Shown: positions 2,334 through 53,550, numbered from the stretch's first letter. The stretch is DNA of 64,000 nt from Bacilli bacterium (GCA_017887425.1 JAGHHZ010000028.1:20304-84303); one strand, 5' to 3'. Notes: a model not told the origin generated them from the letters alone. Translations and numbers: made by a program.

Positions 2334-4499
2334 ATGAAAACAAGAAGTATGAAGTGGAAAACCCCAATGGTTGTTTTTTGTGTATTTCTTGTTTTTATTT
2401 TGATTTTATTTTTGCAGTATGTCTATTTATCTTTATCACCTAATGTTTATGGCATTAATATGCAAGAATTTGCTTCTAATAGAAATACTTATTCCTCACT
2501 ATTACATGCCCAAAGAGGAACAATTTATGATAGTCAAGGAGATATTTTAGCACAAGATGTTTCAAGTTACACAGTAATTGCTTATTTAGATGAAAGTAGA
2601 ACAGGTTCTTCTACCACTTTGCATCATGTCGCTGATAAACAAATGACAGCAGAAGCTTTAGCGCCTTTATTAAATATGGAAGTAGATGAAATATTAGATC
2701 TGTTAAATCGTGATGCTTATCAAGTCGAATTAGGTCCAGGTGGACGAGGAATAACTGAAATATTAAAGAAGAAAATTGAAGAGTTAAATTTACCAGGAAT
2801 CGATTTTATCGAAAGTTATAAAAGATATTATCCTAATGGTGACTTTGCTTCTTATATTGTCGGATATGCTAAAAAACAAAATGTTGAAGTTGAATTAGAT
2901 AATACAACTAGACAAGAAGAAGTATTAGTAGGAGAATTAGGAATTGAAGTTCAGTATAATGAATTATTACAAGGAACTAATGGCTATATTAGTTATCAAC
3001 AAGATCGTTATGGATATAAAATACCTGATACTCCTGAAATAAATGAACCGGCAGTTGATGGTAGTGATATCTATTTAACAATCGATGCAAATATTCAAAG
3101 AATTTTAGAATCGGTAGTTGATGAAAATGTTGAATTATATGATCCGGAATGGGTAACAATTAATGTTATGGATGCGAAAACTGGCGACATTTTAGGATCA
3201 GCTTCTAGTCCATCTTTTGATCCTAACAAATTAAATTTGACTAATTACGAGAACCCTTTAACTTCTTTTGTTTACGAACCAGGTAGTGTTATGAAGATAT
3301 ATACTTATATGTGTGCAATTGAAAAAGGAACTTATAAAGGTGATGAACTATACCAATCAGGGCACATCAACATCGAAGGAACTAATATCTATGACTGGAA
3401 TAATGTCGGTTGGGGTAAGATTACATATGACCGAGGCTTTATATTATCAAGTAATGTTGCAACTTCTAACATTATGCAAAACTTCTTGACTAAGGATGAA
3501 TTAAAAGATTGCTTAGAAAGTTATGGTTTTGGTGAAGTAACAGGAATTGAATTACCACGTGAATTATCAGGTAGTCTAGTTTTTAATTATCCAGTTGAAG
3601 TAGCTGCTGCTTCTTATGGACAAGGTATTACAACCACACCTATTCAGCATTTACAAGCTTTAAGTATCATTGCTAATGATGGTTATATGGTTAAGCCACA
3701 TATTGTTAGCAAAATTGTTCAAAACGGTGAAGTTACTTACGATAGAGAAGTTAGTAAAAGTGAAAGAATTGTCAATCAAGCAACAATTGACAAAATAAAA
3801 GAATTAATGTATGGTGCAGTTAATGATGAAGAAGGGGGAGCTATCGGATTAGCTTACCGTGTTGATGGATTAGATATAATTGGTAAAACAGGAACAGCTG
3901 AAATATACGATGCTGAAAACGGTGGTTATTTAACTGGTTGGTTAGATAATCTATATTCATTTTCCGGAATGTTTCCAGCTGATGATCCTGAGATAATTAT
4001 CTTTGTTTCAGTTAAAAGACCTAATAACGGATCTAATATTGGTATTAAAACAATGACGCAATCAGCAATTGAATCAATTGCTAAATATAAAGGTTACATT
4101 AGTAATGATACAAATGATGATACAATTAATAATGTTACTATTGAAAACTATGTTAATTTAAATTCTGAAGAAGTTGTCAAAGAATTAGAAAATAAAGGAT
4201 TAGATGTTGTTTTATTAGGTGAAGGCGATAAAATTATAAATCAATACCCAGTTTCTGGAACAACTTTATTAACTGGTGATAAAGTATTTTTACTAACAAA
4301 TGCTAAAGAAATTTTAATGCCAAATTTAGTTGATTATTCAAGAATTGAAGCGATTGCTTTATTAGAGTTACTCGATGTCGAATATGAGTTAGATGGTTAT
4401 GGCTTTGTTACTGAACAAAATATTAAAGTAGGAGAACAGATAACCGATAAAATAAAACTAACTCTAAAACAAAAATATGAAGAAGATGCGGAGGATTAA
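2334..4499 (+). CDS. Class B penicillin-binding protein (PBP2B/FtsI/SpoVD type) with two C-terminal PASTA domains
   Basis: It has an N-terminal TM segment and the transpeptidase motifs SVMK (SxxK), SSN (SxN) and KTGTA (KTG). Two roughly 60-aa PASTA-like repeats sit at the C-terminus. Confidence 0.92.
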   Translation: MKTRSMKWKTPMVVFCVFLVFILILFLQYVYLSLSPNVYGINMQEFASNRNTYSSLLHAQRGTIYDSQGDILAQDVSSYTVIAYLDESRTGSSTTLHHVADKQMTAEALAPLLNMEVDEILDLLNRDAYQVELGPGGRGITEILKKKIEELNLPGIDFIESYKRYYPNGDFASYIVGYAKKQNVEVELDNTTRQEEVLVGELGIEVQYNELLQGTNGYISYQQDRYGYKIPDTPEINEPAVDGSDIYLTIDANIQRILESVVDENVELYDPEWVTINVMDAKTGDILGSASSPSFDPNKLNLTNYENPLTSFVYEPGSVMKIYTYMCAIEKGTYKGDELYQSGHINIEGTNIYDWNNVGWGKITYDRGFILSSNVATSNIMQNFLTKDELKDCLESYGFGEVTGIELPRELSGSLVFNYPVEVAAASYGQGITTTPIQHLQALSIIANDGYMVKPHIVSKIVQNGEVTYDREVSKSERIVNQATIDKIKELMYGAVNDEEGGAIGLAYRVDGLDIIGKTGTAEIYDAENGGYLTGWLDNLYSFSGMFPADDPEIIIFVSVKRPNNGSNIGIKTMTQSAIESIAKYKGYISNDTNDDTINNVTIENYVNLNSEEVVKELENKGLDVVLLGEGDKIINQYPVSGTTLLTGDKVFLLTNAKEILMPNLVDYSRIEAIALLELLDVEYELDGYGFVTEQNIKVGEQITDKIKLTLKQKYEEDAED

Positions 4500-4575: not shown

Positions 4576-6864
4576 ATGTTTGGACAATTTACTGAAGAAG
4601 CAAGAAAAATATTAATTAATGCGAAAATAGAAATGACCGAATTAAAACATCCTTATGTTGGAAGTGAACATTTTTTACTGGCAATTTTAAAAAGAAAAAA
4701 CAATGTTTCCAAAAAACTAAAACAATATAATTTAGATTATGAAATATTTAAAAACAAATTAATTGAAACAGTTGGTATAGGAAGTAAACAAAGTGAATGG
4801 TTTTTATATACACCTTTGCTTAAAAGAGTGATGGAAAATGCCATGTTAGATTGTAAAGAAAATAATACTGATGTAACAATCGAATCTTTATTTTCTAATC
4901 TTTTAGAAGAGGGTGAAGGTGTCGCTATTAGAATATTACTTAGTTTAAATATTGATTTAGATAGTTTATATAACGAATTTAGTTATAAAATAATCAATAA
5001 GAAAAAAAATAAAAAACTTTTATTAGAAGAATTAGGTACTGATTTAACTAAAAAAGCTAATGAATTAGATCCAGTAATTGGAAGAGACGAAGAAATCAAA
5101 AGAATAATTGAAATATTATCTCGAAGGACTAAAAATAATCCTTTATTAATTGGTGAAGCAGGAGTTGGTAAAACAGCTATTGTCGAACAGCTAAGTAAAA
5201 TGATTAGTGAGGGCAATGTTCCAAATAGTTTAAAAAACAAAAGAATTATCAGTTTAGATATGGCTACTTTAGTAGCTGGAACTAAATATCGTGGTGAATT
5301 TGAAGAAAGAGTTAAAAAAATTTTAAAGGAAGTAGAAGAGGATGATGAGATAATTTTATTCATCGACGAAATTCATACATTAGTAGGAGCTGGTGGGGCA
5401 GAAGGAGCTATCGATGCTTCTAACATTTTTAAACCGGCTTTAGCAAGGAATAAATTAAGATGCATTGGAGCTACTACTATTAGTGAGTATAAAAAATTTA
5501 TTGAGACTGATAAAGCTCTAGAAAGAAGATTTCAAAAAGTTATGGTTGATGTTCCAAATAGGGAAGTTGTTAAAAAAATATTATCAAGACTTAAACCAAT
5601 TTATGAGGATTATCACCATGTCACTATTAATGATAATATTATTGATAAGATAATTGAACTAAGTGATAAATATGTCTATGATCGTAATCAACCAGATAAA
5701 GCTATTGATATTCTAGATGAAGTGTGTGCAAAAGCAAGTTTAAAAGAAAGCAAAGAATTAACTTTATATAACAATTTAAATAAAAAACTACAAACTTTAA
5801 TTAAAAATAAAAATGAAGCTGTTAGTAATAATAATTTTAAAAAAGCTAATAGTTTAAAAAAAGAAGAATTCAAACTAATGGATAAGATTAATAATTTAGA
5901 ACTCATCTTATGCAATAAAAAAAGAAATGATGTAACTATTAATGATGTTGCTTATGTTATAAATGATAAAACCCAAATACCAATTTATGAGATATTAAAT
6001 GAAAATAACAAAGTAATAAATCAAATGAATAAAGAAATAACTGATAAAATTATCGGTCAAGATGAAGCTGTTAACGAAGTTATCAATATAGCCAAAAAAA
6101 TAAAATTAGGATTTAAAGATGATAAATGTTATTCTTTAATGTTTGTAGGACCAACCGGAGTAGGAAAAACCGAATTAGCTTTAAGCTTTGGTCATATATT
6201 AGCTGGTAAAAATGTTATTAGATTAGATATGAGTGAATTTAGTGAAGCTCATAGTGTAAGTCGTTTTATTGGTGCTCCTCCTGGATATATTGGTTATAGT
6301 GACAATAAAACAATTTTAGAAGAAATTAAAAATAAACCATTTTCTGTTCTTATTTTAGATGAAATAGAAAGAGCAAATAATAGTATTATTAATCTTTTAT
6401 TTCAAATTTTAGATAATGGTAAAATAAAAGATGCTAAGGGAGAAGAGGTCTATTTTAATAATATCGTAATTATTATGACTTCTAATATTGGGTTTGATGA
6501 AGTTAATGTCGGTTTTAATAAAAACAATAACAATATTTCTAAATTAAAAGAATATTTTAGTTTACCATTTATCAATCGTATCGATAATATTATTAGTTTT
6601 AATTCTTTAAAAGAAGAAAATATAATAAAGTTAATTGAAATAAAAATTACTAATTTGATTAATAAGTATAAAAGCAAAATAAAAGTTAAAATAGATAAAA
6701 AAGTGATTGAAGAAATATTAAATTTAAGTAATTATCAAGAGTTTGGAGCACGCAAACTTGATAAGATTATTAAAAATAAACTAGAAAATATTATTTTAGA
6801 TAAAATAATTCTAGGAAGAAAATCAGTTAATATTAAAAGTATTGAACAAATAATAAATGTTTAA
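4576..6864 (+). CDS. clpC: ATP-dependent Clp protease ATP-binding subunit ClpC-like (class I AAA+)
   Basis: It carries Clp_N repeats (HPYVGSEHFLLAIL, TIESLFSNLLEEGEGVAIRIL). D1 has GEAGVGKTA and ILFIDEIH. D2 has GPTGVGKTE and VLILDEIE. GAPPGYIGY is present. The SD GGAAGGAGA lies upstream. Confidence 0.88.
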   Translation: MFGQFTEEARKILINAKIEMTELKHPYVGSEHFLLAILKRKNNVSKKLKQYNLDYEIFKNKLIETVGIGSKQSEWFLYTPLLKRVMENAMLDCKENNTDVTIESLFSNLLEEGEGVAIRILLSLNIDLDSLYNEFSYKIINKKKNKKLLLEELGTDLTKKANELDPVIGRDEEIKRIIEILSRRTKNNPLLIGEAGVGKTAIVEQLSKMISEGNVPNSLKNKRIISLDMATLVAGTKYRGEFEERVKKILKEVEEDDEIILFIDEIHTLVGAGGAEGAIDASNIFKPALARNKLRCIGATTISEYKKFIETDKALERRFQKVMVDVPNREVVKKILSRLKPIYEDYHHVTINDNIIDKIIELSDKYVYDRNQPDKAIDILDEVCAKASLKESKELTLYNNLNKKLQTLIKNKNEAVSNNNFKKANSLKKEEFKLMDKINNLELILCNKKRNDVTINDVAYVINDKTQIPIYEILNENNKVINQMNKEITDKIIGQDEAVNEVINIAKKIKLGFKDDKCYSLMFVGPTGVGKTELALSFGHILAGKNVIRLDMSEFSEAHSVSRFIGAPPGYIGYSDNKTILEEIKNKPFSVLILDEIERANNSIINLLFQILDNGKIKDAKGEEVYFNNIVIIMTSNIGFDEVNVGFNKNNNNISKLKEYFSLPFINRIDNIISFNSLKEENIIKLIEIKITNLINKYKSKIKVKIDKKVIEEILNLSNYQEFGARKLDKIIKNKLENIILDKIILGRKSVNIKSIEQIINV

Positions 6865-6972: not shown

Positions 6973-7290
6973 ATGAAATTAGCGATACTTATTTTAAAAG
7001 AAGAAGAATTATTAGATAAATTAATTAAAGAATTAAATGAAAATAATTTTCATAATTTGACTACGATTAATAGTGAGAGTGTAGCAACAAGTGGCAACAA
7101 TAAAAGTGTGCGGGTTTTTAGTTCCCTACGTTATATTATGAACTATTTTTATGATGATAGTAGAGTTATGCTTATTCCGATTGAGGAAGATAAAATCGAT
7201 GACTTATTTAAAGTTACATCTAATATTCTAACTAAAGATAAATATATGTTTTTAATTTTACCAGTTGATAGAATTGAAGGTAAATTATAA
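6973..7290 (+). CDS. Small cytoplasmic protein with a PII-like beta-alpha-beta pattern (function unknown)
   Basis: 105 aa. MKLAILIL / helix / NLTTINSES / loop / RVMLIPIEEDKIDDLF / MFLILPVDRIEG suggests a ferredoxin-like double beta-alpha-beta fold. The stop TAA overlaps the next ATG by 1 nt. Confidence 0.45.
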   Translation: MKLAILILKEEELLDKLIKELNENNFHNLTTINSESVATSGNNKSVRVFSSLRYIMNYFYDDSRVMLIPIEEDKIDDLFKVTSNILTKDKYMFLILPVDRIEGKL

Positions 7291-8438
7291 TGAATGTTTT
7301 AGTTAGTATTGCAGCTATTTTGTTTTTTGGAATTATTCTAGGTAAATTAATAAAATTATTTAAACTACCAGAAGTCACAGGGTATTTATTAACTGGACTG
7401 TTGATTGGTCCTTATGTTTTAAATTTAGTTAGTTTAGATGATGTCTATATATTAGAACCTTTCACAACTATTGCTTTAACTTTTATTTCGTTTTTGGTTG
7501 GAGCAGAATTAAAATGGAAATATGTCAAAAAGTTAGGTAGTAAACCGTTTGTCATTGGACTTACAACTTCTTTGTGTGCTTTGATTTTAGTAACTGTCGG
7601 TTGCATCTTAGCTGGATATGATTTTAAAATCAGCTTATTATTAGGGGCTATTGCCACATCAGCTGCTCCAGCTAGTGTTTTAATGATTGTTAAAGAATAT
7701 AAAGCGCATGGTGAGTTAACTAAAACAATGCTAAGTGTTATTGCGATAAGTGATATTTTATCGGTTATTTTATTTGGTATTTGTTTAGCTTTAGTAAAAG
7801 AAAATTCATCTATTTTACTTGTTTTAACTGAACCATTAAAAGAAATAATTATTTCTTTGTTAATTGGAGGAATTTTAGGCTATACAGTTGGTTATTTGTC
7901 ACGTTTCTTAAGAAAACATGGCGATATTATTACTTTAATTATCGTAGCTGTTTTTGTTGATATTTTGGCTTGTGATTTAATTGGAATTTCGCAATTATTA
8001 TCAGCGATGATCATGGGTATTATATTTATTAATTCCTTTAATAACCGAATTACTGATAAAGTATTAGATATTATCGATGATATTTCAACTCCTTTGCTAT
8101 TGATATTTTTTGTTTTATCAGGAGCAAGTTTAGATTTTAATGCTTTACCAACAATTGGTATACTTGGTCTAACTTATGTAATATTGCGAATAATTGGTAA
8201 AGTAATCGGTAATTTTATCGGTTCAAAAATAACTAAAGAAACTAAAAATATTACAAAATATCTAGGATTTACCTTACTATCTCAAACAGGTATAGCTATT
8301 GGTTTAGCTACTCTCGCTTCAACCGTTATTGAAAATGGTGAATTGTTAGTTGCTGTAGTTGTCGCTTCTAGTTTTATCTTTGATGTTCTTTGCCCATTAT
8401 TGACAAAATACGTCTTGAAAAAATCTAAAGAAATATAG
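7290..8438 (+). CDS. Cation:proton antiporter (Na+/H+ exchanger, CPA2-type membrane domain, no fused RCK domain)
   Basis: 382 aa and about 11-12 TM segments. It opens FGIILGKLIKLFKLPEVTGYLLTGLLIGP, which is typical of the Kef/NapA/CPA2 family. Confidence 0.8.
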   Translation: MNVLVSIAAILFFGIILGKLIKLFKLPEVTGYLLTGLLIGPYVLNLVSLDDVYILEPFTTIALTFISFLVGAELKWKYVKKLGSKPFVIGLTTSLCALILVTVGCILAGYDFKISLLLGAIATSAAPASVLMIVKEYKAHGELTKTMLSVIAISDILSVILFGICLALVKENSSILLVLTEPLKEIIISLLIGGILGYTVGYLSRFLRKHGDIITLIIVAVFVDILACDLIGISQLLSAMIMGIIFINSFNNRITDKVLDIIDDISTPLLLIFFVLSGASLDFNALPTIGILGLTYVILRIIGKVIGNFIGSKITKETKNITKYLGFTLLSQTGIAIGLATLASTVIENGELLVAVVVASSFIFDVLCPLLTKYVLKKSKEI

Positions 8439-21580: not shown

Positions 21581-21803
21581 ATTAACCTCCTTAAGCACTA
21601 CTATTTTACCACATTTCTCATTATTTTCAACATAAAATTGATAATTAAATCATACAATATAGTGTATCGCAAATAGATACATATAGGAAACTCGTAGGAT
21701 TACGGTTTCCTTTTTGTCTAAAAAAATGTAAAAATGTGGTAAATAGTATTTAAATATATACAAAATATGTCGAAAAATGGTATAATTATTAATAGGTGAG
21801 GCT

Positions 21804-23813
21804 ATGAAAAAGTTAGTAAATATTTTATTAGTTTCCATAATTTTGTTTGTTAGCCTAGTTCCACCAATTCGTGCGGAAGAAGTAAGATACGGTTATGTAA
21901 ATTCTACTTCTGGAAATGGTATAAAAGTAAGAAGTGGCCCTGGAACTAGTTATAGTACTTTAAGTGACGGTTTAGCCGAAGGAGAACAAATAAAAATCTT
22001 AAGTGAGCATAAACCTGATGATGGTACTAGTAAAAGCTGTAGTTTATGGTATAAAATTGAATTTGACGAAGTTGATTCAGGAATCGGCTATGCGTGTGCT
22101 GATATGGTTAAAATAATTGAAATTCAAACTGATGAAGATTTTGAAGAAAGTTTAAAAGCATTCCCTGAAAGTTATCATGATGCTTTAAGATTATTACATA
22201 CTATTTATCCTAATGCTATTTTTAAATCATATGATACTAGATTAGATTTTAATACGGTTGTTGAAAATGAATCTTTAGAAGGTCATAGTCTAATTTGGGA
22301 TTCAAATAATTCAAGAGATGGTTTAAAATTAATGGATAGTTATAATTATAAAACCAATAAATTTGCTAATAATTATTCTGGTGGTGGTCCAACTTGGTAT
22401 GCAGCTAATTCTGAAACGATTGCTTATTATCTTGATCCAAGAAATTTCTTAACAGAATCAAGAGTATTTATGTTTGAAAGCCTATCATACAATGCTAGTA
22501 TTCATACTGAAGCTGGTGTGGATGCTATTTTAGCGGGAAGTTTTATGGCTAAAGAAAAAGTTGATGGTGGTGACAAGTCATTTGCTGAAGTTATTATGGC
22601 AGCAGGTAAAAAATATAATATAAGTCCATATTATTTAGCTAGTCGTATTTTACAAGAAACCGGTTATACTAGAAGTGCTTTAGTAAAGGGAGATTATGAT
22701 GGAAAATATGATAAATATGACGGTTATTATAATTTCTTTAACTATGATGCAACTGGTACTGACATAGTAGGTAATGGTTTAGCTTATGCTTATAAAAAAG
22801 GTTGGAATTCGGAAGAAAAAGCGATTATGGGCGGAGCTAGTTTGATTGAATCTGGTTATATTAGTTCTGGACAAGATACAAATTATTTTCAAAAATGGGA
22901 TGTTGTTTGTGATGCTAAAGATTTAGATGATTGTAGCTTTTATTGGCATCAATTCCAGCAAAATATTGAAGCTCCTTATAGTGAGGCTTATAAAACTTAT
23001 GATGGCTATAAAGAAACATTTGATGATAAATTATATACTTTACCATTAATATTTACTATTCCTGTTTATAAAAACATGCCTAAAAAAACATCTTTACCAA
23101 GTGAAGATAATCCAATTAATTATTTAAAAACCTTAACCGTTGATGGTAAGAGTGTAGCTAATTTTAATAGTTTAAAAACAGCTTATACAATTAGTATTCC
23201 AGAAACTAAAAAATCGGTTAAAATAGCGGCGACAAGAATTGAAAGTAGATCTAAGATTACAGGAACGGGAACAATTGAAATAACTAAAGATGGTCAAGTT
23301 ATCCCAATTACGGTAACTGCAGAAAACGGTGATAAGTTAGTCTATAATATTACTGTTAAGTTAACTAAAGTTGATGAAACTGCTATGACTTTAGATGAGA
23401 CGATAGAAAATATTAAATCGGGAATATTTAAAGATGGTTATGTAACGGGTTTAACTAATGTTCAAACAATTTTGGAAGCAATAACAAAAGCTAATGAATT
23501 AGCTGAAGTTAAAGTTTATAATTTAAATAATAAAGAAGTTACTAGTGGTTCAGTTGGTACTGGATATAAAGTAACTATCACAGTTGGTGAAGAAAGTAAA
23601 ACTTTTGAAGTAGTTATCTATGGCGATATTAATGGTGATAGTGAAATAACTGTTTTGGATTTATTAAGAGTACAAAAAGATATCTTAGATATTTCTAATT
23701 TATCAGATGCTCAAGCAAAAGCAGCTGATGTTAGTAAAGATGGAAAAATATCTGCTTTAGATTTATTGAAAGTGCAAAAAGATATACTGGGTATATCTGA
23801 AATTAAACAATAA
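21804..23813 (+). CDS. Secreted peptidoglycan hydrolase: signal peptide + SH3b + GH73 N-acetylglucosaminidase + cadherin-like beta-sandwich + C-terminal dockerin
   Basis: The signal peptide is MKKLVNILLVSIILFVSLVPPIRA. The SH3b domain contains GYVNSTSGNGIKVRSGPGTSYSTL. The GH73 core contains YYLASRILQETGY, YNFFNY and YFQKWD. The module YLKTLTVDGKSV...YNITVKL is cadherin-like. The last 65 aa hold two EF-hand-like dockerin repeats, DINGDSEITVLDLLRVQKDIL and DVSKDGKISALDLLKVQKDIL. Confidence 0.8.
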   Translation: MKKLVNILLVSIILFVSLVPPIRAEEVRYGYVNSTSGNGIKVRSGPGTSYSTLSDGLAEGEQIKILSEHKPDDGTSKSCSLWYKIEFDEVDSGIGYACADMVKIIEIQTDEDFEESLKAFPESYHDALRLLHTIYPNAIFKSYDTRLDFNTVVENESLEGHSLIWDSNNSRDGLKLMDSYNYKTNKFANNYSGGGPTWYAANSETIAYYLDPRNFLTESRVFMFESLSYNASIHTEAGVDAILAGSFMAKEKVDGGDKSFAEVIMAAGKKYNISPYYLASRILQETGYTRSALVKGDYDGKYDKYDGYYNFFNYDATGTDIVGNGLAYAYKKGWNSEEKAIMGGASLIESGYISSGQDTNYFQKWDVVCDAKDLDDCSFYWHQFQQNIEAPYSEAYKTYDGYKETFDDKLYTLPLIFTIPVYKNMPKKTSLPSEDNPINYLKTLTVDGKSVANFNSLKTAYTISIPETKKSVKIAATRIESRSKITGTGTIEITKDGQVIPITVTAENGDKLVYNITVKLTKVDETAMTLDETIENIKSGIFKDGYVTGLTNVQTILEAITKANELAEVKVYNLNNKEVTSGSVGTGYKVTITVGEESKTFEVVIYGDINGDSEITVLDLLRVQKDILDISNLSDAQAKAADVSKDGKISALDLLKVQKDILGISEIKQ

Positions 23814-23830
23814 AGGAGTTGAAGAACATT

Positions 23831-25342
23831 ATGAAAAAACTATATTTATTAATATTTGGAATAATTTTAAGCTTTATTTGTATTAACAATGTTGATGCAG
23901 CAACTGCAAATATAAGTGTTAGCGCATCTAAATCGCGGGTTATTGTCGGTGATACAGTTAATATAACTATCAGATTATCTTCTTCAGCTAATATTGGTAG
24001 TTGGGATTTTAATGTAATTCCATCTTCCAATTTGACTTTAATTGAACGTAGTGATGGGTATGATGGATTAAAAGTCGCGGATGCTGGAGGGGCTTCTACT
24101 AAAAGTAAAACATATACTTTTACTTTTAGAGCAAAATCAAGCGGAACTGGTAGTGTTAAAATTAGTGTTAATGAAATTTATGAGATGACAAATGATGATT
24201 CAACTCCAAAAATGCAAGTGACAACTAATAGCACAAGTTTTACTGTTATGACTCAAAGTCAGTTAGAAGCAAGTTATAGTAAAAATAATTATTTATCTAG
24301 TTTAGAAGTTGAAGGTCAAACTTTAACTCCAAAATTTGATAAAGAAACATTAGAGTATAGTTTAGAATTAGAATATGGAACAGAAAGTATTAATATCATT
24401 ACTGATACAGAAGATTCTAAAGCTAGTGTCGATGGGGATGGAGAAGTAACATTATCTCAAGGAATGAATGCAATAAAAGTTGTTGTTACTGCTGAAAATG
24501 GAAGCACTAGAATATATACTATTAATGCCACAGTTAAAGAATTAGATCCTATTAATGTTAATTTAGATGGAACTAACTATTCTGTTGTAAGAGAAGAAGA
24601 ATTTTTACCGAGTGCTAGTAGTGCTTATCAAAAAACTACTATTCAAATAGATGAAAAAGATGTACCTGCTTATTATAATGAGGTAGTTGATTTTACTTTA
24701 GTTGGTTTAAAAGATAAAGCTGGAAACATTAATCTATATATTTACAAAGATGATAATTATACTTTATATAATGAATTTAACTTTAATCAATTAAGTATTT
24801 ATTTGTTAGATATGGATGAGTCATTAATTCCAAGTGGTTATAAACAAGGAGAAATCACAATCGGTGATAGAGCAGTAACCGCTTATACAAGAGATGGTTA
24901 TGAATTTCCAATTGTCTATGGTTTAAATATTGAAACAGGGGAGAAGAACCTATATAAATATGACGCCAAAGAAAACACTTTACAACGAGTTGAAAATATT
25001 GACTCTAGTAAAGAAAGTTTATATTTTAATATTATTTTAGGTTCGTTTGGATTTACGGCTGTATCTTATTTATTCTTTATTAATTTATTAAGTAAGAAAA
25101 ATAAACAACAAAGAGAATTTTTAGAAAAAACAATGCAGATGAATATTAGTGATATCAAAATGAATAAGGACTTAGGCGATGAATTATATAAGAATACGGC
25201 ATTATCAAGAAAACAAATGAAACAAAAGAAAAAAGAAGACAAGAAAGCTTTAAAACAACAAAAGAAAGAAGCAAAAAAAGATAAAAAGACATCTAAAAAA
25301 AATAAAGATAGCAAAAATAAAGATGAAATGGCTGAATTATAG
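23831..25342 (+). CDS. Membrane-anchored cohesin-like protein (signal peptide + cohesin-like domain + cadherin-like domain + TM + Lys-rich tail)
   Basis: The signal peptide is MKKLYLLIFGIILSFICINNVDA. A roughly 125-aa beta-rich module follows (ANISVSASKSRVIVGDTVNITIRLSSSANIGSWDFNVIPSSNLTLI...GTGSVKISV) with the cohesin pattern. The module YLSSLEVEGQTLTPKFDKETLEYSLE...RIYTINATV is cadherin-like. The TM segment is LYFNIILGSFGFTAVSYLFFINLL, followed by a K-rich tail. The start was taken at ATG 23831, 12 nt after AAGGAG. Confidence 0.65.
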   Translation: MKKLYLLIFGIILSFICINNVDAATANISVSASKSRVIVGDTVNITIRLSSSANIGSWDFNVIPSSNLTLIERSDGYDGLKVADAGGASTKSKTYTFTFRAKSSGTGSVKISVNEIYEMTNDDSTPKMQVTTNSTSFTVMTQSQLEASYSKNNYLSSLEVEGQTLTPKFDKETLEYSLELEYGTESINIITDTEDSKASVDGDGEVTLSQGMNAIKVVVTAENGSTRIYTINATVKELDPINVNLDGTNYSVVREEEFLPSASSAYQKTTIQIDEKDVPAYYNEVVDFTLVGLKDKAGNINLYIYKDDNYTLYNEFNFNQLSIYLLDMDESLIPSGYKQGEITIGDRAVTAYTRDGYEFPIVYGLNIETGEKNLYKYDAKENTLQRVENIDSSKESLYFNIILGSFGFTAVSYLFFINLLSKKNKQQREFLEKTMQMNISDIKMNKDLGDELYKNTALSRKQMKQKKKEDKKALKQQKKEAKKDKKTSKKNKDSKNKDEMAEL

Positions 25343-25351
25343 CCATTTTTT
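25328..25351 (+). terminator. Rho-independent terminator after the cohesin-like gene
   Basis: ATGGCT-gaattat-AGCCAT followed by TTTTT. The hairpin spans the TAG stop. Confidence 0.6.
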
Positions 25352-25736: not shown

Positions 25737-28583
25737 ATGGGACCACTTTATATTAAAACAGATAATAGTTTATTAAGTAGTTTGATTAAAATCGACGACT
25801 TAATTAATTTCGCTATTAAAAACAATATAAAAAGTTTGGCTATCACTGATGACAGTATGTATGGTGTTTTAGAATTTTATTTAAAATGTAAAAAAAATAA
25901 TATTAAACCAATTATCGGCCTAGAAATAGCTGATATTGTATTGTATGCTATTAATTATCAAGGATATCAAAATTTAATTAAATTAAGTACGATTAATTCT
26001 AAAGAAAAAGTTGACTTAAGTACTTTAATGAAATATAGTGATGAATTAGTATGTATTGTCCCATATTATAATTTAGAAAACTATGATAATTATAAATTCT
26101 ATAAATATTTATATCAAGGATATACTAATTTAGATGAAAAGAAAAGCTTAACTGGTAAAACAGTTTATTTAAATGAAGTTTTGTATTTAGAAGAAAGTGA
26201 TCGTAGTTATTTAAAATATTTATATGCGATTAATAAAGGAGTTAGTGTTAAGGAAATAAATTTAAATAAACATGATAATCATTTATTAAATTATCAATTA
26301 TATAATAATGATTGTAATGAAGAAATAATTGATTTATGTAATGCTACCTTGCCATTAAAACAAGATTTACTACCAATTTATAGCTGTCCTAACAACTTAG
26401 ATAGTTATACTTATTTAAAACAGTTAGTTATTAAAGGATTAAAAGAAATCTTTGGCGAAAAAGTAAATAAAATTTATTTAGATAGATTAAAGTATGAATT
26501 AGATATTATAAACAAAATGGGTTTTTGTAACTATTTTTTAGTTGTTTGGGATTATGTTAAATATGCTAAAGAAAATGGTATTTTAGTTGGACCAGGAAGA
26601 GGTAGTGCAGCTGGATCTTTAGTATCATATTGTCTTAATATTACTACTATTGATCCAATTAAATACGATTTATTATTTGAAAGATTTTTAAATCCCGAGC
26701 GAATAAGTATGCCTGATATTGATATTGATTTTGAATATACAAGAAGAGAAGAAGTATTAAACTATTGTATTAATAAATATGGGGATAAAAAAGTTGCTCC
26801 GATTATTACTTTTGGAACATTAGGAAGTAAACAAGTTATAAGAGATGTTGGAAAAGCTTTAAGTATCGATAGTAAATCGATCGACAGTTTTGCTAAAGCT
26901 TTAGATTCAAGACTAAGTTTATATGAAAACTATCCAAAAATAAAAAATTTTATTAAGGAAAATATCGAATTAAAAAAACTATATAAAATAGCTCTAAAAC
27001 TAGAAGGATTAAAAAGACACACTAGTATTCATGCGGCAGGTGTGGTTATGTCTAAAGAAAACTTAGATGAAATAATTCCTTTGGTCTATCACGATAATCT
27101 ATATATAACTGGTTATTCGATGGAATATTTAGAAGATTTAGGGTTACTCAAAATGGACTTTTTAGCTTTAAAAAATCTGACTTTAATCAATAATGTTTTA
27201 AAAGAAATAAATATTAAATTTGATGATATTCCTTTAAATGATGAAAAAGCTATTAAAATATTTACCGATGTTGATACAATAGGAATATTTCAATTTGAAT
27301 CAGGTGGGATGATTAATTTTTTAAAAAAATTTAAAATAAGTAGTTTTGATGATATTGTTGCCGCTATCGCTTTATTTAGACCAGGACCTATGCAAAATAT
27401 TGATACATATATTAAAAGAAAAAATGGTTTGGAAAAATATGAAATAATCAAACCATTAGAACCAATTTTAAAGTCAACTTATGGAATAATTATTTATCAA
27501 GAGCAAATTATGCAAATAGCGCATATCTTAGCTAATTATTCTTTAGCCGAAGCCGATCTTTTAAGAAAAGCGATGAGTAAGAAAAAAGAAGATATTTTAT
27601 TAAAAGAAAAAGATAAATTTATTAATCAAACTATTCAAAATGGCTATACTAAAGAAGTTGCGACTGATATATATAATTTGATTTTAAAATTTGCGTCTTA
27701 TGGTTTTAATAAAGCTCATTCAGTTTCTTATGCTTTAGTATCTTATAAGATGGCTTATCTAAAAGCACATTATTATCCTATTTTTATGAAACATTTACTA
27801 TCGATGGTGATTGGTAGTGAGATAAAGACAAGAGAATATATTAATATGTGTAAAGATGAAATCGAAGTTTTAAAGCCAGATATCAATATTAGTGACATCG
27901 ATTATATCATCAAAGATAATAAACTTATATATCCTTTAACCAATATTAAAAATGTAGGATTAATTGCGGCTAAAGCGATTGTCGAAGAGAGAAAAAAAGG
28001 AAAGTTTAAAGATGTTTTTGACTTTTTTGCGCGTTGTTATGGTAAAAGTATTAATAATAAAATAATTGAATCTTTAAATAAAGCTGGTTGTTTTTTAGAA
28101 TTTTGTAATCAAAAAACAATCGATAATAATATTGATATTTTAATTAACTATAGTGAGTTAGGTGGTTTATTAGAAGACTCTTTAAAACCAGAACTAGTTA
28201 ACTATCAGGAATATTCTAAACAAGAGCTTTTAAGTAGAGAAATAGAGGTGTTTGGAACTTATTTAAGTAGTCATCCTGTTACTAATTTAAAACATAAGAT
28301 AAAAGCAATAAACTTAAAAGATGTTGTTGATTATTATGATAAAAACATTATTGCATTAGCTTATATTGAAAGAATAAAAAGAGTTAAAACTAAAAACAAT
28401 AAAGAAATGATTTTTATAACTGGTAGTGATGAGACAAGTATTTGTGAATTTATTTTGTTTCCGAGAGAATTTTGTGATATAATTATAGGTAGTATATATA
28501 TGATAGAAGGGAAAGTCGAAAAAAGATTTGATAAATATCAAATTGTTATTAATCGAATAAAGAAGGTGGATTATGAAAAATAG
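25737..28583 (+). CDS. dnaE: DNA polymerase III subunit alpha (DnaE type), short form with a degenerate PHP motif
   Basis: Motifs GPGRGSAAGSLVSYCL, FERFLNPERISMPDIDIDF, HAAGVV, LKMDFLALKNL, FRPGPM and FNKAHSVSYAL. 948 aa. Confidence 0.93.
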   Translation: MGPLYIKTDNSLLSSLIKIDDLINFAIKNNIKSLAITDDSMYGVLEFYLKCKKNNIKPIIGLEIADIVLYAINYQGYQNLIKLSTINSKEKVDLSTLMKYSDELVCIVPYYNLENYDNYKFYKYLYQGYTNLDEKKSLTGKTVYLNEVLYLEESDRSYLKYLYAINKGVSVKEINLNKHDNHLLNYQLYNNDCNEEIIDLCNATLPLKQDLLPIYSCPNNLDSYTYLKQLVIKGLKEIFGEKVNKIYLDRLKYELDIINKMGFCNYFLVVWDYVKYAKENGILVGPGRGSAAGSLVSYCLNITTIDPIKYDLLFERFLNPERISMPDIDIDFEYTRREEVLNYCINKYGDKKVAPIITFGTLGSKQVIRDVGKALSIDSKSIDSFAKALDSRLSLYENYPKIKNFIKENIELKKLYKIALKLEGLKRHTSIHAAGVVMSKENLDEIIPLVYHDNLYITGYSMEYLEDLGLLKMDFLALKNLTLINNVLKEINIKFDDIPLNDEKAIKIFTDVDTIGIFQFESGGMINFLKKFKISSFDDIVAAIALFRPGPMQNIDTYIKRKNGLEKYEIIKPLEPILKSTYGIIIYQEQIMQIAHILANYSLAEADLLRKAMSKKKEDILLKEKDKFINQTIQNGYTKEVATDIYNLILKFASYGFNKAHSVSYALVSYKMAYLKAHYYPIFMKHLLSMVIGSEIKTREYINMCKDEIEVLKPDINISDIDYIIKDNKLIYPLTNIKNVGLIAAKAIVEERKKGKFKDVFDFFARCYGKSINNKIIESLNKAGCFLEFCNQKTIDNNIDILINYSELGGLLEDSLKPELVNYQEYSKQELLSREIEVFGTYLSSHPVTNLKHKIKAINLKDVVDYYDKNIIALAYIERIKRVKTKNNKEMIFITGSDETSICEFILFPREFCDIIIGSIYMIEGKVEKRFDKYQIVINRIKKVDYEK

Positions 28584-28929
28584 AGGATTTACATTAGCAG
28601 AATTATTAGGAGTTATTATTATTTTAGGAGTAATTGCTTTGATTGCAACTATTAGTATTACTAATAGTATGAGAAATAGTCGTGAGGAGTTATATAATTT
28701 ACAAATCAGTAATATAATTAACGGGGCAAAAACATGGGCAAGTGGTAATGTTTTTGAATTACCAGAAAATGATGGCGAAGCTATTTACTTAACTTTAGCC
28801 GAATTAAAAGAAGCTGGTTTTGTTGAAAAAGATATAACTAATCCTTTAACTGATGAATTATTTAGTGATCAATTACAAGTAAAAATTACGAAAATTGACA
28901 ATAATTATAATTATGAAATAGTAGAATAA
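28573..28929 (+). CDS. Prepilin-type N-terminal cleavage/methylation domain protein (ComGC/pseudopilin-like)
   Basis: It opens MKNRG|FTLAELLGVIIILGVIALIATISI, which is the class III signal (G-F-T-L-x-E) plus a hydrophobic helix. 118 aa. The ATG overlaps the dnaE 3' end by 11 nt. Confidence 0.8.
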   Translation: MKNRGFTLAELLGVIIILGVIALIATISITNSMRNSREELYNLQISNIINGAKTWASGNVFELPENDGEAIYLTLAELKEAGFVEKDITNPLTDELFSDQLQVKITKIDNNYNYEIVE

Positions 28930-37530: not shown

Positions 37531-38394
37531 TTATAATAGGCGACTTATTTGTTTTTTACTTAATTTAGTTAATTTAGCTATTAAGTCGATGCTCATTCCT
37601 TCAGCCAACATATTTTTGGCAATATCTAAAATGCCTTTTTTTTCGCCTTCAATTAATCCAATCTTTTTACCTTTTTTTTCGCCTTCGATTAAGCCAACTT
37701 TTTTGCCTTCTTCTTTGCTTTGTTCAATTAAAGCATCTTGATACATTTTTCGCTCTTCTTCAGCCGTAAACCAACTAATTACTTCATCATCATTGTTAAC
37801 TTCATCAACTTTCTTTTTATATTCCATAACTTTATCACTCCTTTCAGCTAATTCAGCTAATTCTTCTTTGCCTAAACCTAACATGATAATTAGTTCATCA
37901 TTATTTTTAAACTTCTTACCATTATTATAATAATCATTAACATAAAAATCTACATTTATGTTGAAGATTGTTAAAATATCGGTTACTATTAGTTTCTTTT
38001 GCTTACTATATAGTCCTAGTTCGTCTTTCTTATATCCGTGACAATTAAAATTTAGATTTATTTGAATTATTTTTTTATTAGAATTATAAACTTTTTTGCC
38101 TTTTTCCGCTTTACTACCACATAGTTTAAAAACATAGAAAAGATTACGTGTGAAAATAAGTTTATCGAATTTAGAATTCAATTCAACATTAATATATTCA
38201 TTATTTGTGTTTATTAATAAATCTAATTTTTGAATGCGATTATTTATTTTATCAGTAACTAAATTAGGATTTAAAATATTCATATTTTCGATTTTTCTTT
38301 CTAATATTTTTTCTAATAAATCTTTTAATAATTGTCTATTATTTAAAAAGACATACATAAAAACTACCTCATGCTTAGCAGTATAATATTTCAT
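37531..38394 (-). CDS. Rpn-family recombination-promoting nuclease / putative transposase (PD-(D/E)xK, YhgA-like)
   Basis: It opens HEVVFMYVFLNNRQLLKDLLEKIL, contains LDLLINTNNEYINVELN and IQINLN, and has a C-terminal EEG..G..EG..KG repeat followed by AKNMLAEGMSIDLIAKLTKLSKKQI. All of this is typical of the Firmicute Rpn/'transposase_31' family. The SD GAGGAGGTG lies upstream. Confidence 0.75.
   Translation of the reverse strand: MKYYTAKHEVVFMYVFLNNRQLLKDLLEKILERKIENMNILNPNLVTDKINNRIQKLDLLINTNNEYINVELNSKFDKLIFTRNLFYVFKLCGSKAEKGKKVYNSNKKIIQINLNFNCHGYKKDELGLYSKQKKLIVTDILTIFNINVDFYVNDYYNNGKKFKNNDELIIMLGLGKEELAELAERSDKVMEYKKKVDEVNNDDEVISWFTAEEERKMYQDALIEQSKEEGKKVGLIEGEKKGKKIGLIEGEKKGILDIAKNMLAEGMSIDLIAKLTKLSKKQISRLL
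37637..37708. repeat. 36-bp tandem duplication inside the Rpn-family gene
   Basis: TCGCCTTCAATTAATCCAATCTTTTTACCT at 37643 matches TCGCCTTCGATTAAGCCAACTTTTTTGCCT at 37679, an offset of 36. These encode GKKIGLIEGEKK and GKKVGLIEGEKK. Confidence 0.8.
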
Positions 38395-46727: not shown

Positions 46728-47393
46728 ATGTTTTATTTAAAAAAATATCGATATATAATTTTAAGTGGTTTACTAATTATTGTTTTTTTGTTTTTTAATA
46801 AAAATAGTGATGAGATAGAACTAACATCAGATTTATCTTTAGAAATTAAAGAAGAAGTCACCGAAGAAATTCCTAAAGAAGAAAAAATAAAAGTTGATAT
46901 TAAAGGTGCCGTTAAAAATCCCGGAGTTTATGAAATTAATAGTAATGGGCGAGTCGCTGATGCAATAGAAATAAGTGGTGGTTTAACTAATGATGCTGAT
47001 ACAAGCACTATTAATTTAAGTAAAAATTTAACTGATGAAATGGTTATAATTATTTATACTAAAGAAGAAGTTGCAGAAATGTTAAAAGGTAGTACAAGTA
47101 TTAAATATATTGAAAAAGAGTGTATTTGTCCCAAAATAGAAAATGATGCTTGTATCGATAATGTTATTGATAATAAACCAGATACTAATACTTCTAATGA
47201 ACAAAAAGTATCTTTAAATAGTGCTACTATCGATGAATTAATGCAATTACCAGGTATTGGTGAAGTAAAAGCAAAAGCAATAATCGCTTACCGAGAAGAA
47301 AATGGGGGTTTTAAAACCATCGAAGAATTGTTAGAGGTAAACGGAATTGGCGAATCTACTTTTAATAAAATTAAAGACCAACTTAGTTTATAA
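46728..47393 (+). CDS. comEA: Competence protein ComEA (DNA receptor; SLBB + tandem helix-hairpin-helix)
   Basis: A TM anchor, then VDIKGAVKNPGVYEI and LNSATIDELMQLPGIGEVKAKAIIAYREENGGFKTIEELLEVNGIGESTFNKIK. The start was taken at ATG 46728 after the SD AGGAGG. Confidence 0.9.
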   Translation: MFYLKKYRYIILSGLLIIVFLFFNKNSDEIELTSDLSLEIKEEVTEEIPKEEKIKVDIKGAVKNPGVYEINSNGRVADAIEISGGLTNDADTSTINLSKNLTDEMVIIIYTKEEVAEMLKGSTSIKYIEKECICPKIENDACIDNVIDNKPDTNTSNEQKVSLNSATIDELMQLPGIGEVKAKAIIAYREENGGFKTIEELLEVNGIGESTFNKIKDQLSL

Positions 47394-49347
47394 ATTATTG
47401 ATTTGTTTTACTGTCATTTATACTTTTTATATTACTAATAACTTGCTTTATCACTCACATTATCAAGAAGGAAGTGTTGATTTAATCGGTTATATAACAG
47501 ATATAACTTATAAAGAAGATAAAATAGATTTAGAAATTAAAGCTAAAGAAAAAATTAAAGTTAGTTATTATACTAATGACAATTTGAATCTTAAATTAGG
47601 CGATTATATAAAAATAAAAGGAGAATTAACTAAACCTTATGATAATACTATTTTTAATTTATTTAATTATCGCAAATACTTATTAAGTAATAAGATTTAT
47701 TTCATTTTAAAGGCTGATGAAATAGTCAAAATAAAAGATAACACTAATCTCTTTTATAAAATAAAAAATATTATTTATGAAAGAATGAATGATTTAAAAA
47801 CAAAAGACTATGTCAAAGCTTTTGTCTTAGGTGATAATCAAGATTTAGATGACGATATGGAAGTTATATATCAAGAAAATGGAGTTACACATCTTTTAGC
47901 TGTCTCTGGTTCCCACACCACTTTTTTAGCTTTTGTTTTATTAATTTTTTTAAAGAAGTTTAAATATAACCATATAATTATCAGTTTAGTTTTAATTTTT
48001 TATGCTTTTTTAACTAATTTTACTCCTTCTATTTTAAGAGCTGTTTTTTTATTTATGTTAAATAAGTACGATAAAAAAAAGACAATTATTATAATTGCTT
48101 GTTTGATGCTTTTATATAATCCATATTATATTTATAACGTTGGATTCCTTTTTAGCTTTGTTATATGTTTTTATTTGATTTATTTTGGTAATTTAACCAA
48201 TAATTTTAAAAATTACTTTGTTAAATTATTAATTACTTCATTAATATGTTTTGTTGCAAGTATTCCTATTATGATTAATAATTTCTATTATATTAATATT
48301 ATGAGTCCTTTAATTAATGTTGTTTTTGTTCCTTTCGTTACTTTTATTATTTTCCCATTATGTTTAATAACTTTAATCATTCCTTATTTTGATAATATAT
48401 TGTTGTTAGCTTTGAATATAATGGAACAGTTATCGTTATTTTTTAACTATTTTAATATTAACTTAATTATGAGTAAGGTTAATATATTTATTTTTATTTT
48501 ATATTATATAATTATAACTTTTATATTTATAAAACCTAAGTATTTTTATATTTTAATAATTATGATTTTTATTCATAATAACATTAAATATTTTAATCAA
48601 AACAATTATCTTACGATGATTGATGTTGGACAAGGGGATAGTATTTTATTAGAATTGAAAAATAAAAATATTTTAATCGATACGGGGGGTAATAGTTTTA
48701 GTGACTACAACATAGCAGTTAATAAACTAATTCCTTATTTTAAAAGTTTGGGAATTAAAAAGATAGATTATTTAATTTTAACCCATGGCGATTATGATCA
48801 TTTAGGTGAAGCAGTTAATTTAATCAATAATTTCAAAGTTGATAAAGTTATATTAAACAATGATAAATTTAATGATTTAGAAACAGAACTTATTAATGTT
48901 TTAAATGATAGAAATATTAATTATTTTAAAAACGTTAAACAATTAAGTATTTTTAATAATAAATTATATTTTTTAAATGATGAATTGTATAGTAATGAAA
49001 ATGATAATTCCATTGTTTTGTATGTTGTAGTTAATGATGTCAAAATGTTATTTATGGCAGATGCAGGAATTTCAGTCGAACACGATATAATTAAAAAATA
49101 TAATCTAAATGATATTGATATTTTAAAAGTAGGACATCATGGTAGTAAAACAAGTACTAGTAAGGAATTTATTACGCAAATACAACCTAAATATGCTTTG
49201 ATAAGTGTTGGAGCTAATAATTGGTATGGCCATCCCCATGAAGAAGTATTAGAAAATCTAAATAGTTCTAATATTTATCGCACCGATTTAAATGGAAGTA
49301 TTAAAATAAATTTAGATAAATTAAAAATCAAGACTTGCTTATCGTAG
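47347..49347 (+). CDS. comEC: DNA internalisation competence protein ComEC/Rec2 (competence domain + metallo-beta-lactamase domain)
   Basis: It contains THLLAVSGSH, a polytopic membrane core, and the MBL motifs IDVGQGDS and THGDYDHLG. The start is uncertain: there is no in-frame ATG near the 5' end, and a TTG near 47396, just past the comEA stop, is plausible. Confidence 0.88.
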   Translation: MANLLLIKLKTNLVYKLLICFTVIYTFYITNNLLYHSHYQEGSVDLIGYITDITYKEDKIDLEIKAKEKIKVSYYTNDNLNLKLGDYIKIKGELTKPYDNTIFNLFNYRKYLLSNKIYFILKADEIVKIKDNTNLFYKIKNIIYERMNDLKTKDYVKAFVLGDNQDLDDDMEVIYQENGVTHLLAVSGSHTTFLAFVLLIFLKKFKYNHIIISLVLIFYAFLTNFTPSILRAVFLFMLNKYDKKKTIIIIACLMLLYNPYYIYNVGFLFSFVICFYLIYFGNLTNNFKNYFVKLLITSLICFVASIPIMINNFYYINIMSPLINVVFVPFVTFIIFPLCLITLIIPYFDNILLLALNIMEQLSLFFNYFNINLIMSKVNIFIFILYYIIITFIFIKPKYFYILIIMIFIHNNIKYFNQNNYLTMIDVGQGDSILLELKNKNILIDTGGNSFSDYNIAVNKLIPYFKSLGIKKIDYLILTHGDYDHLGEAVNLINNFKVDKVILNNDKFNDLETELINVLNDRNINYFKNVKQLSIFNNKLYFLNDELYSNENDNSIVLYVVVNDVKMLFMADAGISVEHDIIKKYNLNDIDILKVGHHGSKTSTSKEFITQIQPKYALISVGANNWYGHPHEEVLENLNSSNIYRTDLNGSIKINLDKLKIKTCLS

Positions 49348-53512: not shown

Positions 53513-53550
53513 TATGTGATATGATATTAAGGGAAGTTAAAGGTGAATAT

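Follow-up and report, generated by a model that had tools for sequence, protein, structure and literature searches.

A putative two-gene cohesin-dockerin device for holding a GH73 peptidoglycan hydrolase at the cell membrane of gut bacteria

Organization of the locus

We analyzed a 64-kb stretch of DNA from an uncultured Bacilli bacterium (hereafter, the window; GCA_017887425.1, JAGHHZ010000028.1:20304-84303), which is AT-rich (~27% G+C) and carries two adjacent plus-strand genes, one for a predicted secreted peptidoglycan hydrolase ending in a dockerin (gene 1) and one for a predicted membrane protein with a cohesin-like N-terminal module (gene 2). A first-pass annotation of the window had proposed that the two products form a two-part device which tethers a cell-wall hydrolase to the organism's own membrane through a cohesin-dockerin contact. 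The main elements of the locus are as follows.

21757..21786, + strand: candidate sigma-70 promoter, TATACA / 18 nt / TG-TATAAT (consensus scan and direct reading; a pattern match only)
21794-21801, + strand: candidate ribosome-binding site of gene 1, AGGTGAGG (direct reading; a pattern match only)
21804..23813, + strand: gene 1, predicted secreted dockerin-bearing GH73 peptidoglycan hydrolase, 669 aa (open reading frame, domain matches and homologs)
23813..23818, + strand: ribosome-binding site of gene 2, AAGGAG, overlapping the gene 1 stop codon (direct reading)
23831..25342, + strand: gene 2, predicted type I membrane protein with one cohesin, 503 aa from the ATG (open reading frame with revised start)
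25325..25349, + strand: terminator-like hairpin, a 10-bp stem followed by the T-run TTATTATGGA, overlapping the gene 2 stop codon (pattern scan)

The two same-strand open reading frames (ORFs) were listed as 21804-23813 and 23819-25342. The listed TTG start of gene 2 (23819) directly abuts the ribosome-binding site and the Met encoded by the ATG at 23831 is invariant in 32 gene 2 homologs; thus, considering the invariant Met and the position of the ribosome-binding site, we placed the start at ATG 23831. The gene junction then reads TAA-AGGAG-12 nt-ATG, with the ATG 18 nt after the gene 1 stop, which is the gap that the first-pass annotation had given. With this 18-nt gap, a ribosome-binding site of its own for gene 2 and a terminator-like hairpin after gene 2, which appears to mark the end of the unit, the two genes are predicted to form one operon, preceded by a putative promoter with an extended -10-like element.

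Gene 1 encodes a dockerin-bearing GH73 protein

The modules of gene 1 are listed below.

21804..21875, + strand: signal peptide, aa 1-24, cleavage inferred by eye after IRA (hydrophobic segment aa 1-25)
21918..22109, + strand: SH3b (SH3_3) domain, aa 39-102 (Pfam PF08239, E=1.1e-5, 26.0 bits against a cutoff of 27)
22389..23021, + strand: GH73 N-acetylglucosaminidase domain, aa 196-406 (PDB and NCBIfam matches)
22654-22656, + strand: predicted catalytic Glu285 (alignment to AtlE)
23127..23357, + strand: cadherin-like beta-sandwich module, aa 442-518 (Pfam, 19.1 bits, below the cutoff of 24.2)
23376..23612, + strand: X module before the dockerin, aa 525-603, with no family assigned (kept with the dockerin in Vescimonas fastidiosa, described below)
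23619..23789, + strand: type I dockerin, aa 606-662 (Pfam PF00404)
23625-23687, + strand: dockerin repeat 1, DINGDSEITVLDLLRVQKDIL, aa 608-628 (direct reading)
23727-23789, + strand: dockerin repeat 2, DVSKDGKISALDLLKVQKDIL, aa 642-662 (direct reading)

Every element of the layout proposed in the first pass (ORF, signal peptide, SH3b, GH73, cadherin-like module and dockerin) was recovered, with the SH3b, GH73 and cadherin-like modules scoring under the respective Pfam cutoffs. For the GH73 domain, the Pfam model PF01832 gave 16.5 bits (cutoff 30.2), and the protein matched solved GH73 structures, namely AtlE (4pi7, 6.2e-16) and SagB (6fxp, 1.5e-13; 6u0o, 1.8e-13) of S. aureus and the Atl glucosaminidase (6fxo, 2.7e-12), as well as the NCBIfam SagB model (E=1e-17; 64.3 bits, far under its cutoff of 425). 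Glu285 aligns with the catalytic Glu of the AtlE 'VETG' motif, which is replaced by Ala in the mutant entry 4pi8, and is invariant in 121/121 gene 1 relatives. These matches identify a predicted GH73 glucosaminidase domain whose catalytic Glu is intact. Because the signal peptide (aa 1-25 by hydropathy) is the sole hydrophobic segment, gene 1 appears to have no membrane anchor of its own.

The dockerin, described as textbook in the first pass, lived up to that description: both of the repeats quoted then lie at aa 608-628 and 642-662, and the domain covers the whole PF00404 model (positions 1-57) with 51.1 bits against a cutoff of 22.9 (E=1.6e-13). DINGDSEITVLD and DVSKDGKISALD represent two repeats of ~22 residues in which an EF-hand-like Ca loop, with Asp/Asn at positions 1, 3, 5, and 12, precedes a helix, and at least 97% of the 121 relatives retain the Ca-ligand residues D608, D612, D619, D642, and D653. 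The solved dockerins 2ccl, 1ohz, and 5lxv_B were also matched. A total of 1031 homologs of gene 1 were found, with PF00404 on nearly all among the matches listed.

Accessory modules are distributed less evenly. PF08239 is precomputed on many gene 1 orthologs, and SH3b is absent or undetectable in more distant loci by domain-wise tblastn, which also detected the X module in part of the 80 loci examined below. The cadherin-like modules of gene 1 and gene 2 share 30% identity (E=2e-11) and are, judging from this similarity, paralogous.

Gene 2 encodes a predicted membrane-anchored cohesin

Gene 2 comprises the following segments.

23831..23899, + strand: signal peptide, MKKLYLLIFGIILSFICINNVDA, cleavage site inferred (hydrophobic segment aa 1-26)
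23900..24268, + strand: compact cohesin module, ~120 aa (family hidden Markov model, profile search and predicted fold)
24293..24532, + strand: cadherin-like beta-sandwich module, aa 159-238 (Pfam PF12733, E=1.7e-9)
24545..25018, + strand: membrane-proximal all-beta ectodomain, aa 239-396 (ATG numbering), ~150 aa (AlphaFold2 model)
25025..25090, + strand: single transmembrane helix, aa 399-420 (ATG numbering; hydropathy)
25091..25339, + strand: cytoplasmic tail, 83 aa with 28 K/R and 14 D/E (composition)

Direct searches of Pfam and PDB sequences with the window gene 2 returned no cohesin and gave weak matches to BatD and SoxZ. The assignment of its N-terminal module therefore relies on three independent lines which agree with each other. 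First, among the 693 homologs of gene 2 that were found, 32 full-length ones (41-69% identity) were searched against the Pfam cohesin model PF00963 and 17 of them matched it, the best at 4.8e-9. Second, a profile of the module had solved cohesins as its best PDB matches (3l8q, 3.2e-5; 5g5d, 3e-4; 2y3n, 5e-4), and cohesins made up roughly two-thirds of the 35 PDB matches listed. Third, the AlphaFold2 model of the module (predicted local distance difference test score, pLDDT, 95.4; predicted template modeling score, pTM, 0.86) had the cohesin 4ums as its top Foldseek match (E 5.6e-6, template modeling score, TM-score, 0.74), and 7 of the 10 top Foldseek PDB matches were cohesins. Matched structures also included 5lxv, 2w1n, 2xdh, 5n5p, and 6kgf, and covered both non-cellulosomal cohesins (C. 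perfringens GH84C and A. fulgidus) and R. flavefaciens cohesins solved with their dockerins. Taken together, the family model, the profile search and the predicted fold indicate that this module is a cohesin. The cohesin assignment made in the first pass thus stands for the family, the profile and the fold, but not for a Pfam match of the window protein itself. The second-best Foldseek match was a non-cohesin, the 'CLIPPER' domain of a Gram-negative fibrillar adhesin (9ifr, TM-score 0.72), and this similarity of a predicted model suggests that the CLIPPER and cohesin domain types may share a fold relationship.

The remaining segments proposed in the first pass for gene 2 (signal peptide, cadherin-like module and one transmembrane helix) were all found. 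The cadherin-like module scored 38.5 bits against PF12733 (cutoff 24.2) and is present in 32/32 homologs. It is followed by the membrane-proximal ectodomain, which was modeled with a pLDDT of 90.2 and 14 strands and contains two 'NxYxYD..nTLQRY'-type repeats; no relatives of this domain were detected in Pfam, PDB sequences or Foldseek (best E 0.14). It occurs in 1872 clusters at 50% identity (829 at E<=1e-10), and in those of the 150 matches listed that are full-length (400-600 aa) it begins at about residue 215-250, in nearly all cases C-terminal to a cohesin and a cadherin-like module. The tail is Lys-rich in the window protein, as had been noted in the first pass, but this feature is not conserved, since the tail is acidic and Pro/Glu-rich in Vescimonas (positions ~7260-7704 of the extracted segment L081); the tail is conserved in presence, not in composition. 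In its predicted topology, gene 2 is a type I membrane protein that carries the cohesin at its distal tip, an arrangement that would fit an outward-facing tether.

The two genes are inherited together across distant genomes

A locus scan with gene 2 as query and one genome per species detected relatives at 450 loci, of which 80 were kept. Identity to gene 2 ranges from 92% down to 37% in these 80 loci, which come from metagenome-assembled genomes (MAGs) of uncultured gut Bacilli, 'Mollicutes' or CAG:762-type organisms, several with inconsistent taxon labels; Candidatus Faecisoma, a named relative, is placed in Mycoplasmatota incertae sedis by NCBI. MAGs with close relatives of the pair are in addition labelled Muribaculaceae, Clostridium sp., Roseburia sp., or Candidatus Ruminococcus (L017, L018, L020, L023, L026, L033, L048, L065, L069, and others), and these labels look unreliable because the sequences group with 'uncultured Bacilli' and Mycoplasmatota MAGs.

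Domain-wise tblastn located a dockerin immediately upstream of the cohesin gene in 79/80 loci and a GH73 domain in 77/80, and every locus without a dockerin or GH73 match is cut by a contig end. Co-inheritance of gene 1 and gene 2 is strict. The flanks of the 80 loci are variable (rpoC in 8, dnaE in 3, and a pgsA-like gene in 20), and the pair appears to travel as a unit because these flanking genes change while the dockerin and cohesin genes stay adjacent. Conserved housekeeping synteny was considered as a cause of the adjacency and rejected, as the flanks change and the pair stays together. A phage origin was likewise rejected, since a scan of viral contigs found no relatives of the pair in the viral collection.

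Dockerin and cohesin hidden Markov models (HMMs) built from 78 sequences were run on 1.08 Mb of DNA and detected exactly one ORF for each of the two domains at every locus, save one marginal extra cohesin match, and no further dockerin or cohesin ORFs elsewhere in the 64-kb window. In agreement with the first-pass annotation, which had noted a lack of polysaccharide-degrading genes nearby, none was present among the 20 larger window genes annotated. A cellulosome is defined by multiple cohesins, a carbohydrate-binding module (CBM) and polysaccharide-degrading cargo; within the window and the 80 loci, the gene pair shows a different composition and is not a cellulosome in this sense.

A tblastn search of plasmid records revealed the same arrangement in the cultured human-gut bacterium Vescimonas fastidiosa MM35 (Oscillospiraceae, class Clostridia), at positions 503342-506849 of NZ_AP023416.1 (4200-7707 of L081) on the 861-kb replicon pMM35_01. 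Its enzyme, WP_212821509.1, contains SH3b, GH73, X module, and dockerin, the last two with 38% identity to gene 1, and WP_212821511.1, 10 nt downstream, contains a signal peptide, a cohesin-like and a cadherin-like module, the same C-terminal domain, and a transmembrane helix. The N-terminal module of WP_212821511.1 matches the cohesin profile in hhalign (96%, E=2.5e-9). A homolog search with the Vescimonas scaffold returned, among the matches listed, variants at at least 85% identity. The co-occurrence of the two genes, for which the first-pass annotation had looked to relatives, is thus seen both in adjacent genes of the 79 loci and in a cultured species, with unconserved flanks. Public names of these proteins are generic, and WP_212821509.1 carries the RefSeq Gene Ontology (GO) term 'polysaccharide catabolic process', apparently because of its dockerin alone.

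Dockerin repeats evolve in concert at putative contact positions

We compared the identity of repeat 1 and repeat 2 within and between genomes in a set of 78 genomes. Identity within a genome exceeded that between genomes at repeat positions 9 (0.60 vs 0.25), 10 (0.85 vs 0.26), 11 (0.69 vs 0.29), 15 (0.45 vs 0.14), and 20 (0.92 vs 0.53), whereas the variable, non-contact positions 2, 4, 7, and 16 showed little or no within-genome excess. Positions 10 and 11 are the residues through which type I dockerins classically contact cohesins, and it is specifically at such contact positions that the two repeats evolve in concert. Symmetry confined to certain positions suggests that a partner exerts selection on the repeats and that binding is dual-mode, and speaks against gene conversion; the dockerin is internally symmetric and hence probably of the dual-binding-mode type.

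One locus, L011, has a dockerin with a single repeat (4365-4448; the extracted segment runs for 36 aa before the stop codon), which looks like recombination between repeats or an assembly collapse.

Proposed mechanism and alternative explanations

Considering these observations, we think it rather likely that the operon is a minimal non-cellulosomal cohesin-dockerin device that keeps a GH73 N-acetylglucosaminidase attached to the cell that makes it, at the outer face of its membrane. Sec signal peptides would direct the export of both proteins; gene 2 would be kept in the membrane by its one C-terminal transmembrane helix, with the cadherin-like module and the novel beta domain forming a stalk that carries a single cohesin at its tip, and the Ca-binding C-terminal dockerin of gene 1 would plug into this cohesin. 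As far as the tether reaches, the GH73 domain might then cut glycan strands in the wall of the same cell, assisted in some lineages by the SH3b wall-binding module, with wall remodelling, glycan-strand trimming, and daughter-cell separation as likely roles. That the dockerin and the cohesin bind each other is what we infer from their sequences and linkage, and the cell's own wall is the presumed substrate by analogy with characterized GH73 enzymes. The source organism is predicted to make peptidoglycan because the window encodes a PBP2x-like class B penicillin-binding protein (PBP), MurG, MurB, MurT, GlmS, FtsA, and FtsZ; a PBP4B-like protein is also present.

Several findings weigh against this interpretation. 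The window gene 2 itself has no match to PF00963 in Pfam at E up to 1. Covariation, measured as normalised mutual information in 76 dockerin-cohesin pairs with same-phylogeny controls, was no higher between dockerin and cohesin (mean 0.121, 99th percentile 0.266) than for the C-terminal-domain control (0.120 and 0.263), and dockerin helix positions 14, 15, 10, and 11 showed slightly higher mutual information to the cohesin than to controls, not convincingly. In Vescimonas, dockerin repeat 2 (L081 ~5770-5960) lacks the Ca ligands (QLSGS-KIAATS), and its helix is a near copy of the repeat 1 helix (AATDLLAVKKHILGT vs AATSLLAIKKHILGT); binding details may therefore differ between lineages. The counts by which the dockerin and cohesin appear unique cover ~16 kb per genome. 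Finally, the physiological role, that is autolysis of the cell itself as opposed to lysis of others, is suggested by analogy with AtlE and SagB.

A more ambitious version of the same idea, which we regard as unlikely in its full extent, is that the pair is a housekeeping machine found widely among anaerobic gut Firmicutes, and that its scaffold positions or gates the autolysin in step with growth or division through the beta ectodomain and the variable tail, as a cohesin-dockerin counterpart of SagB-SpdC or FtsEX-PcsB. Since the pair spans Bacilli-like and Clostridia lineages, such a wall-maintenance role could predate the recruitment of cohesin-dockerin modules to cellulosomes.

The tethered enzyme could also be a surface-displayed lytic weapon or scavenger that attacks the walls of neighbours, for competition or amino-sugar harvest, and not the cell's own wall. 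This would suit a reduced-genome, dependent gut lineage, and the best-matching relatives are small-genome MAGs (one a complete chromosome of 1.31 Mb), several labelled Mollicutes or Mycoplasmatota; the enzyme would sit at the tip of a long multi-module reach, and in rumen metagenomes, lysozyme-like modules linked to dockerins have been proposed to serve in attack or defence (Bensoussan et al. 2017, PMC6487960). However, AtlE and SagB, to which the enzyme is closest among characterized proteins, act as housekeeping autolysins, the pair occurs in single copy and is also found in Vescimonas (Oscillospiraceae), outside the small-genome lineage, an anchor beneath the cell's own wall is ill-placed for reaching other cells, and no immunity gene is evident in the operon. 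We therefore consider a role in attack improbable.

Another explanation is that the two proteins do not bind each other: the cohesin-like module could be structural or have another ligand, the dockerin could bind a wall polymer or another cohesin, and the adjacency of the genes could reflect a shared envelope role. Besides the Pfam miss of the window module and the covariation at control level given above, the resemblance of the cohesin fold to other beta-sandwiches speaks for this, as CARDB and TRAP-beta match in addition to CLIPPER. Nevertheless, adjacency remains strict across very divergent genomes despite the turnover of flanks, dockerins and cohesins are one-to-one in all sampled DNA, more than half of the homologs match PF00963, and the concerted change of the dockerin repeats at their contact positions favours a protein partner, so that an absence of mutual binding appears distinctly improbable.

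It seems very improbable that the pair is the visible part of a larger cellulosome-like or amylosome-like complex in which dockerin proteins encoded elsewhere share the membrane cohesin, for although the limited DNA sampled per genome would allow it and the amylosomes of R. bromii illustrate that non-cellulolytic gut Firmicutes can have many dockerins (PMC4611034), neither the 64-kb window nor ~1 Mb of flanks from 80 genomes contains a second dockerin or cohesin, the scaffold has a single cohesin, and R. bicirculans is reported in the same source to have no more than one dockerin and one cohesin, which are linked to a GH73. Overall, the tethering of a wall hydrolase to the membrane, as put forward in the first pass, is largely supported, with mutual binding as the step deduced from sequence.

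Comparison with known cohesin-dockerin and GH73 systems

Non-cellulosomal cohesin-dockerin pairs are known, and the present pair is best filed with them. In C. perfringens (X82/FIVAR-Doc; NagH, NagJ/GH84C), cohesin-dockerin pairing likewise operates outside cellulose degradation, and its cohesins 2w1n, 2jh2, 2vo8, and 2ozn are among the sequence and fold matches of the gene 2 module. However, the C. perfringens modules join secreted toxin enzymes acting on host glycans, whereas here one partner is a predicted integral membrane anchor and the cargo is predicted to act on peptidoglycan. The non-cellulosomal cohesin of A. fulgidus (2xdh), a top-10 fold match, is similarly a stand-alone module without a cellulosome; this and other surveyed non-cellulosomal modules have no defined cargo or physiological role, whereas both the cargo and the operon partner are explicit here.

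The pair also resembles the anchoring scaffoldins of cellulosomes (C. thermocellum SdbA/OlpB and P. cellulosolvens ScaB), in which a cell-bound cohesin captures a dockerin partner. A ScaB cohesin of P. cellulosolvens (4ums) is the best fold match of the gene 2 module, and the dockerin shares the type I pattern of two symmetric repeats with cellulosome systems. In contrast to anchoring scaffoldins, the predicted anchor is a transmembrane helix and not an S-layer homology (SLH) domain or sortase attachment, and in contrast to cellulosomes there is a single compact cohesin of ~120 aa, with no CBM and no polysaccharide-degrading cargo.

On the side of the enzyme, the nearest comparison is the SagB-SpdC complex of S. 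aureus, whose membrane-protein component serves as a scaffold for a GH73 glucosaminidase working on nascent glycan strands (Schaefer et al., bioRxiv 10.1101/2020.05.21.109470). In both systems, a membrane protein would keep its partner enzyme at the membrane and position it on glycan strands, and the two enzymes are GH73 glucosaminidases of one subfamily. However, SagB has its own N-terminal transmembrane helix and SpdC is an 8-transmembrane, CAAX-protease-like protein, whereas a soluble enzyme, a non-covalent cohesin-dockerin tether and a single-pass partner with a long stalk are proposed here. The score against the SagB model (64.3 vs 425 bits), the presence of a signal peptide only and the one-helix partner place the pair outside SagB-SpdC proper, to which it may be functionally analogous as a membrane-tethered system.

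The closest precedent for the pair as a whole is a remark on R. bicirculans, with a "single dockerin and single cohesin associated with a GH73" (Wegmann et al. 2014, cited by Ze et al. 2015, PMC4611034). This is likewise a non-cellulolytic gut Firmicute whose only cohesin-dockerin pair is linked to a GH73. The remark is a one-sentence genomic observation, unlike the present description, and we found in the literature no architecture, membrane anchor, conservation analysis, or function for the R. bicirculans pair. Because our pair is found in Vescimonas, another member of Oscillospiraceae, the R. bicirculans pair is probably the same system. The first-pass annotation knew of no characterized scaffoldin dedicated to a GH73 autolysin; with this one-line precedent the idea is not entirely new, and no characterization of one was found. 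Our literature search also retrieved no paper on the membrane-anchored scaffold, its conservation or its function, or on dockerins of RF39 or Vescimonas.

Other features of the window

Several other genes in the window may be worth mentioning. A protein with a prepilin-type N-terminal motif (MKNRGFTLAELL...) is encoded at 28573-28929, directly 3' of dnaE, and a ComEC/Rec2 homolog at 47347-49347; both belong to a competence or pseudopilus system, here in an organism with a small genome. At 37531-38394 (- strand) lies a gene for a recombination-promoting nuclease of the Rpn family or a transposase-like protein, and an HsdM C-terminal fragment joined to an HsdS-like region (type I restriction-modification) at 62788-63933 (- strand). 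Two ORFs of 332 and 556 aa (53521-54519 and 56857-58527) have no NCBIfam match at E<=1e-5.

Significance

To our knowledge, cohesin-dockerin pairs have been described almost exclusively from cellulosomes and amylosomes, where they act as connectors; the same connector here appears to keep a potentially lethal wall-cutting enzyme on the membrane of the cell that produces it. The system is not a curiosity of one genome, as indicated by at least 450 species-level genomes, ~1,870 clusters with the signature domain of the scaffold and two bacterial classes, and its carriers include abundant human-gut taxa. For genome annotation, the polysaccharide-catabolism tag on the Vescimonas peptidoglycan hydrolase flags a systematic error. 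For cellulosome biology, the pair may offer a minimal one-to-one system in which the specificity and origin of cohesin-dockerin recognition could be studied, and for peptidoglycan biology it would represent a new, modular form of spatial confinement of a GH73 glucosaminidase, for comparison with SagB-SpdC. As Vescimonas fastidiosa MM35 is cultured, the hypothesis that these gut bacteria hold a wall hydrolase on their own membrane in this way is directly testable.

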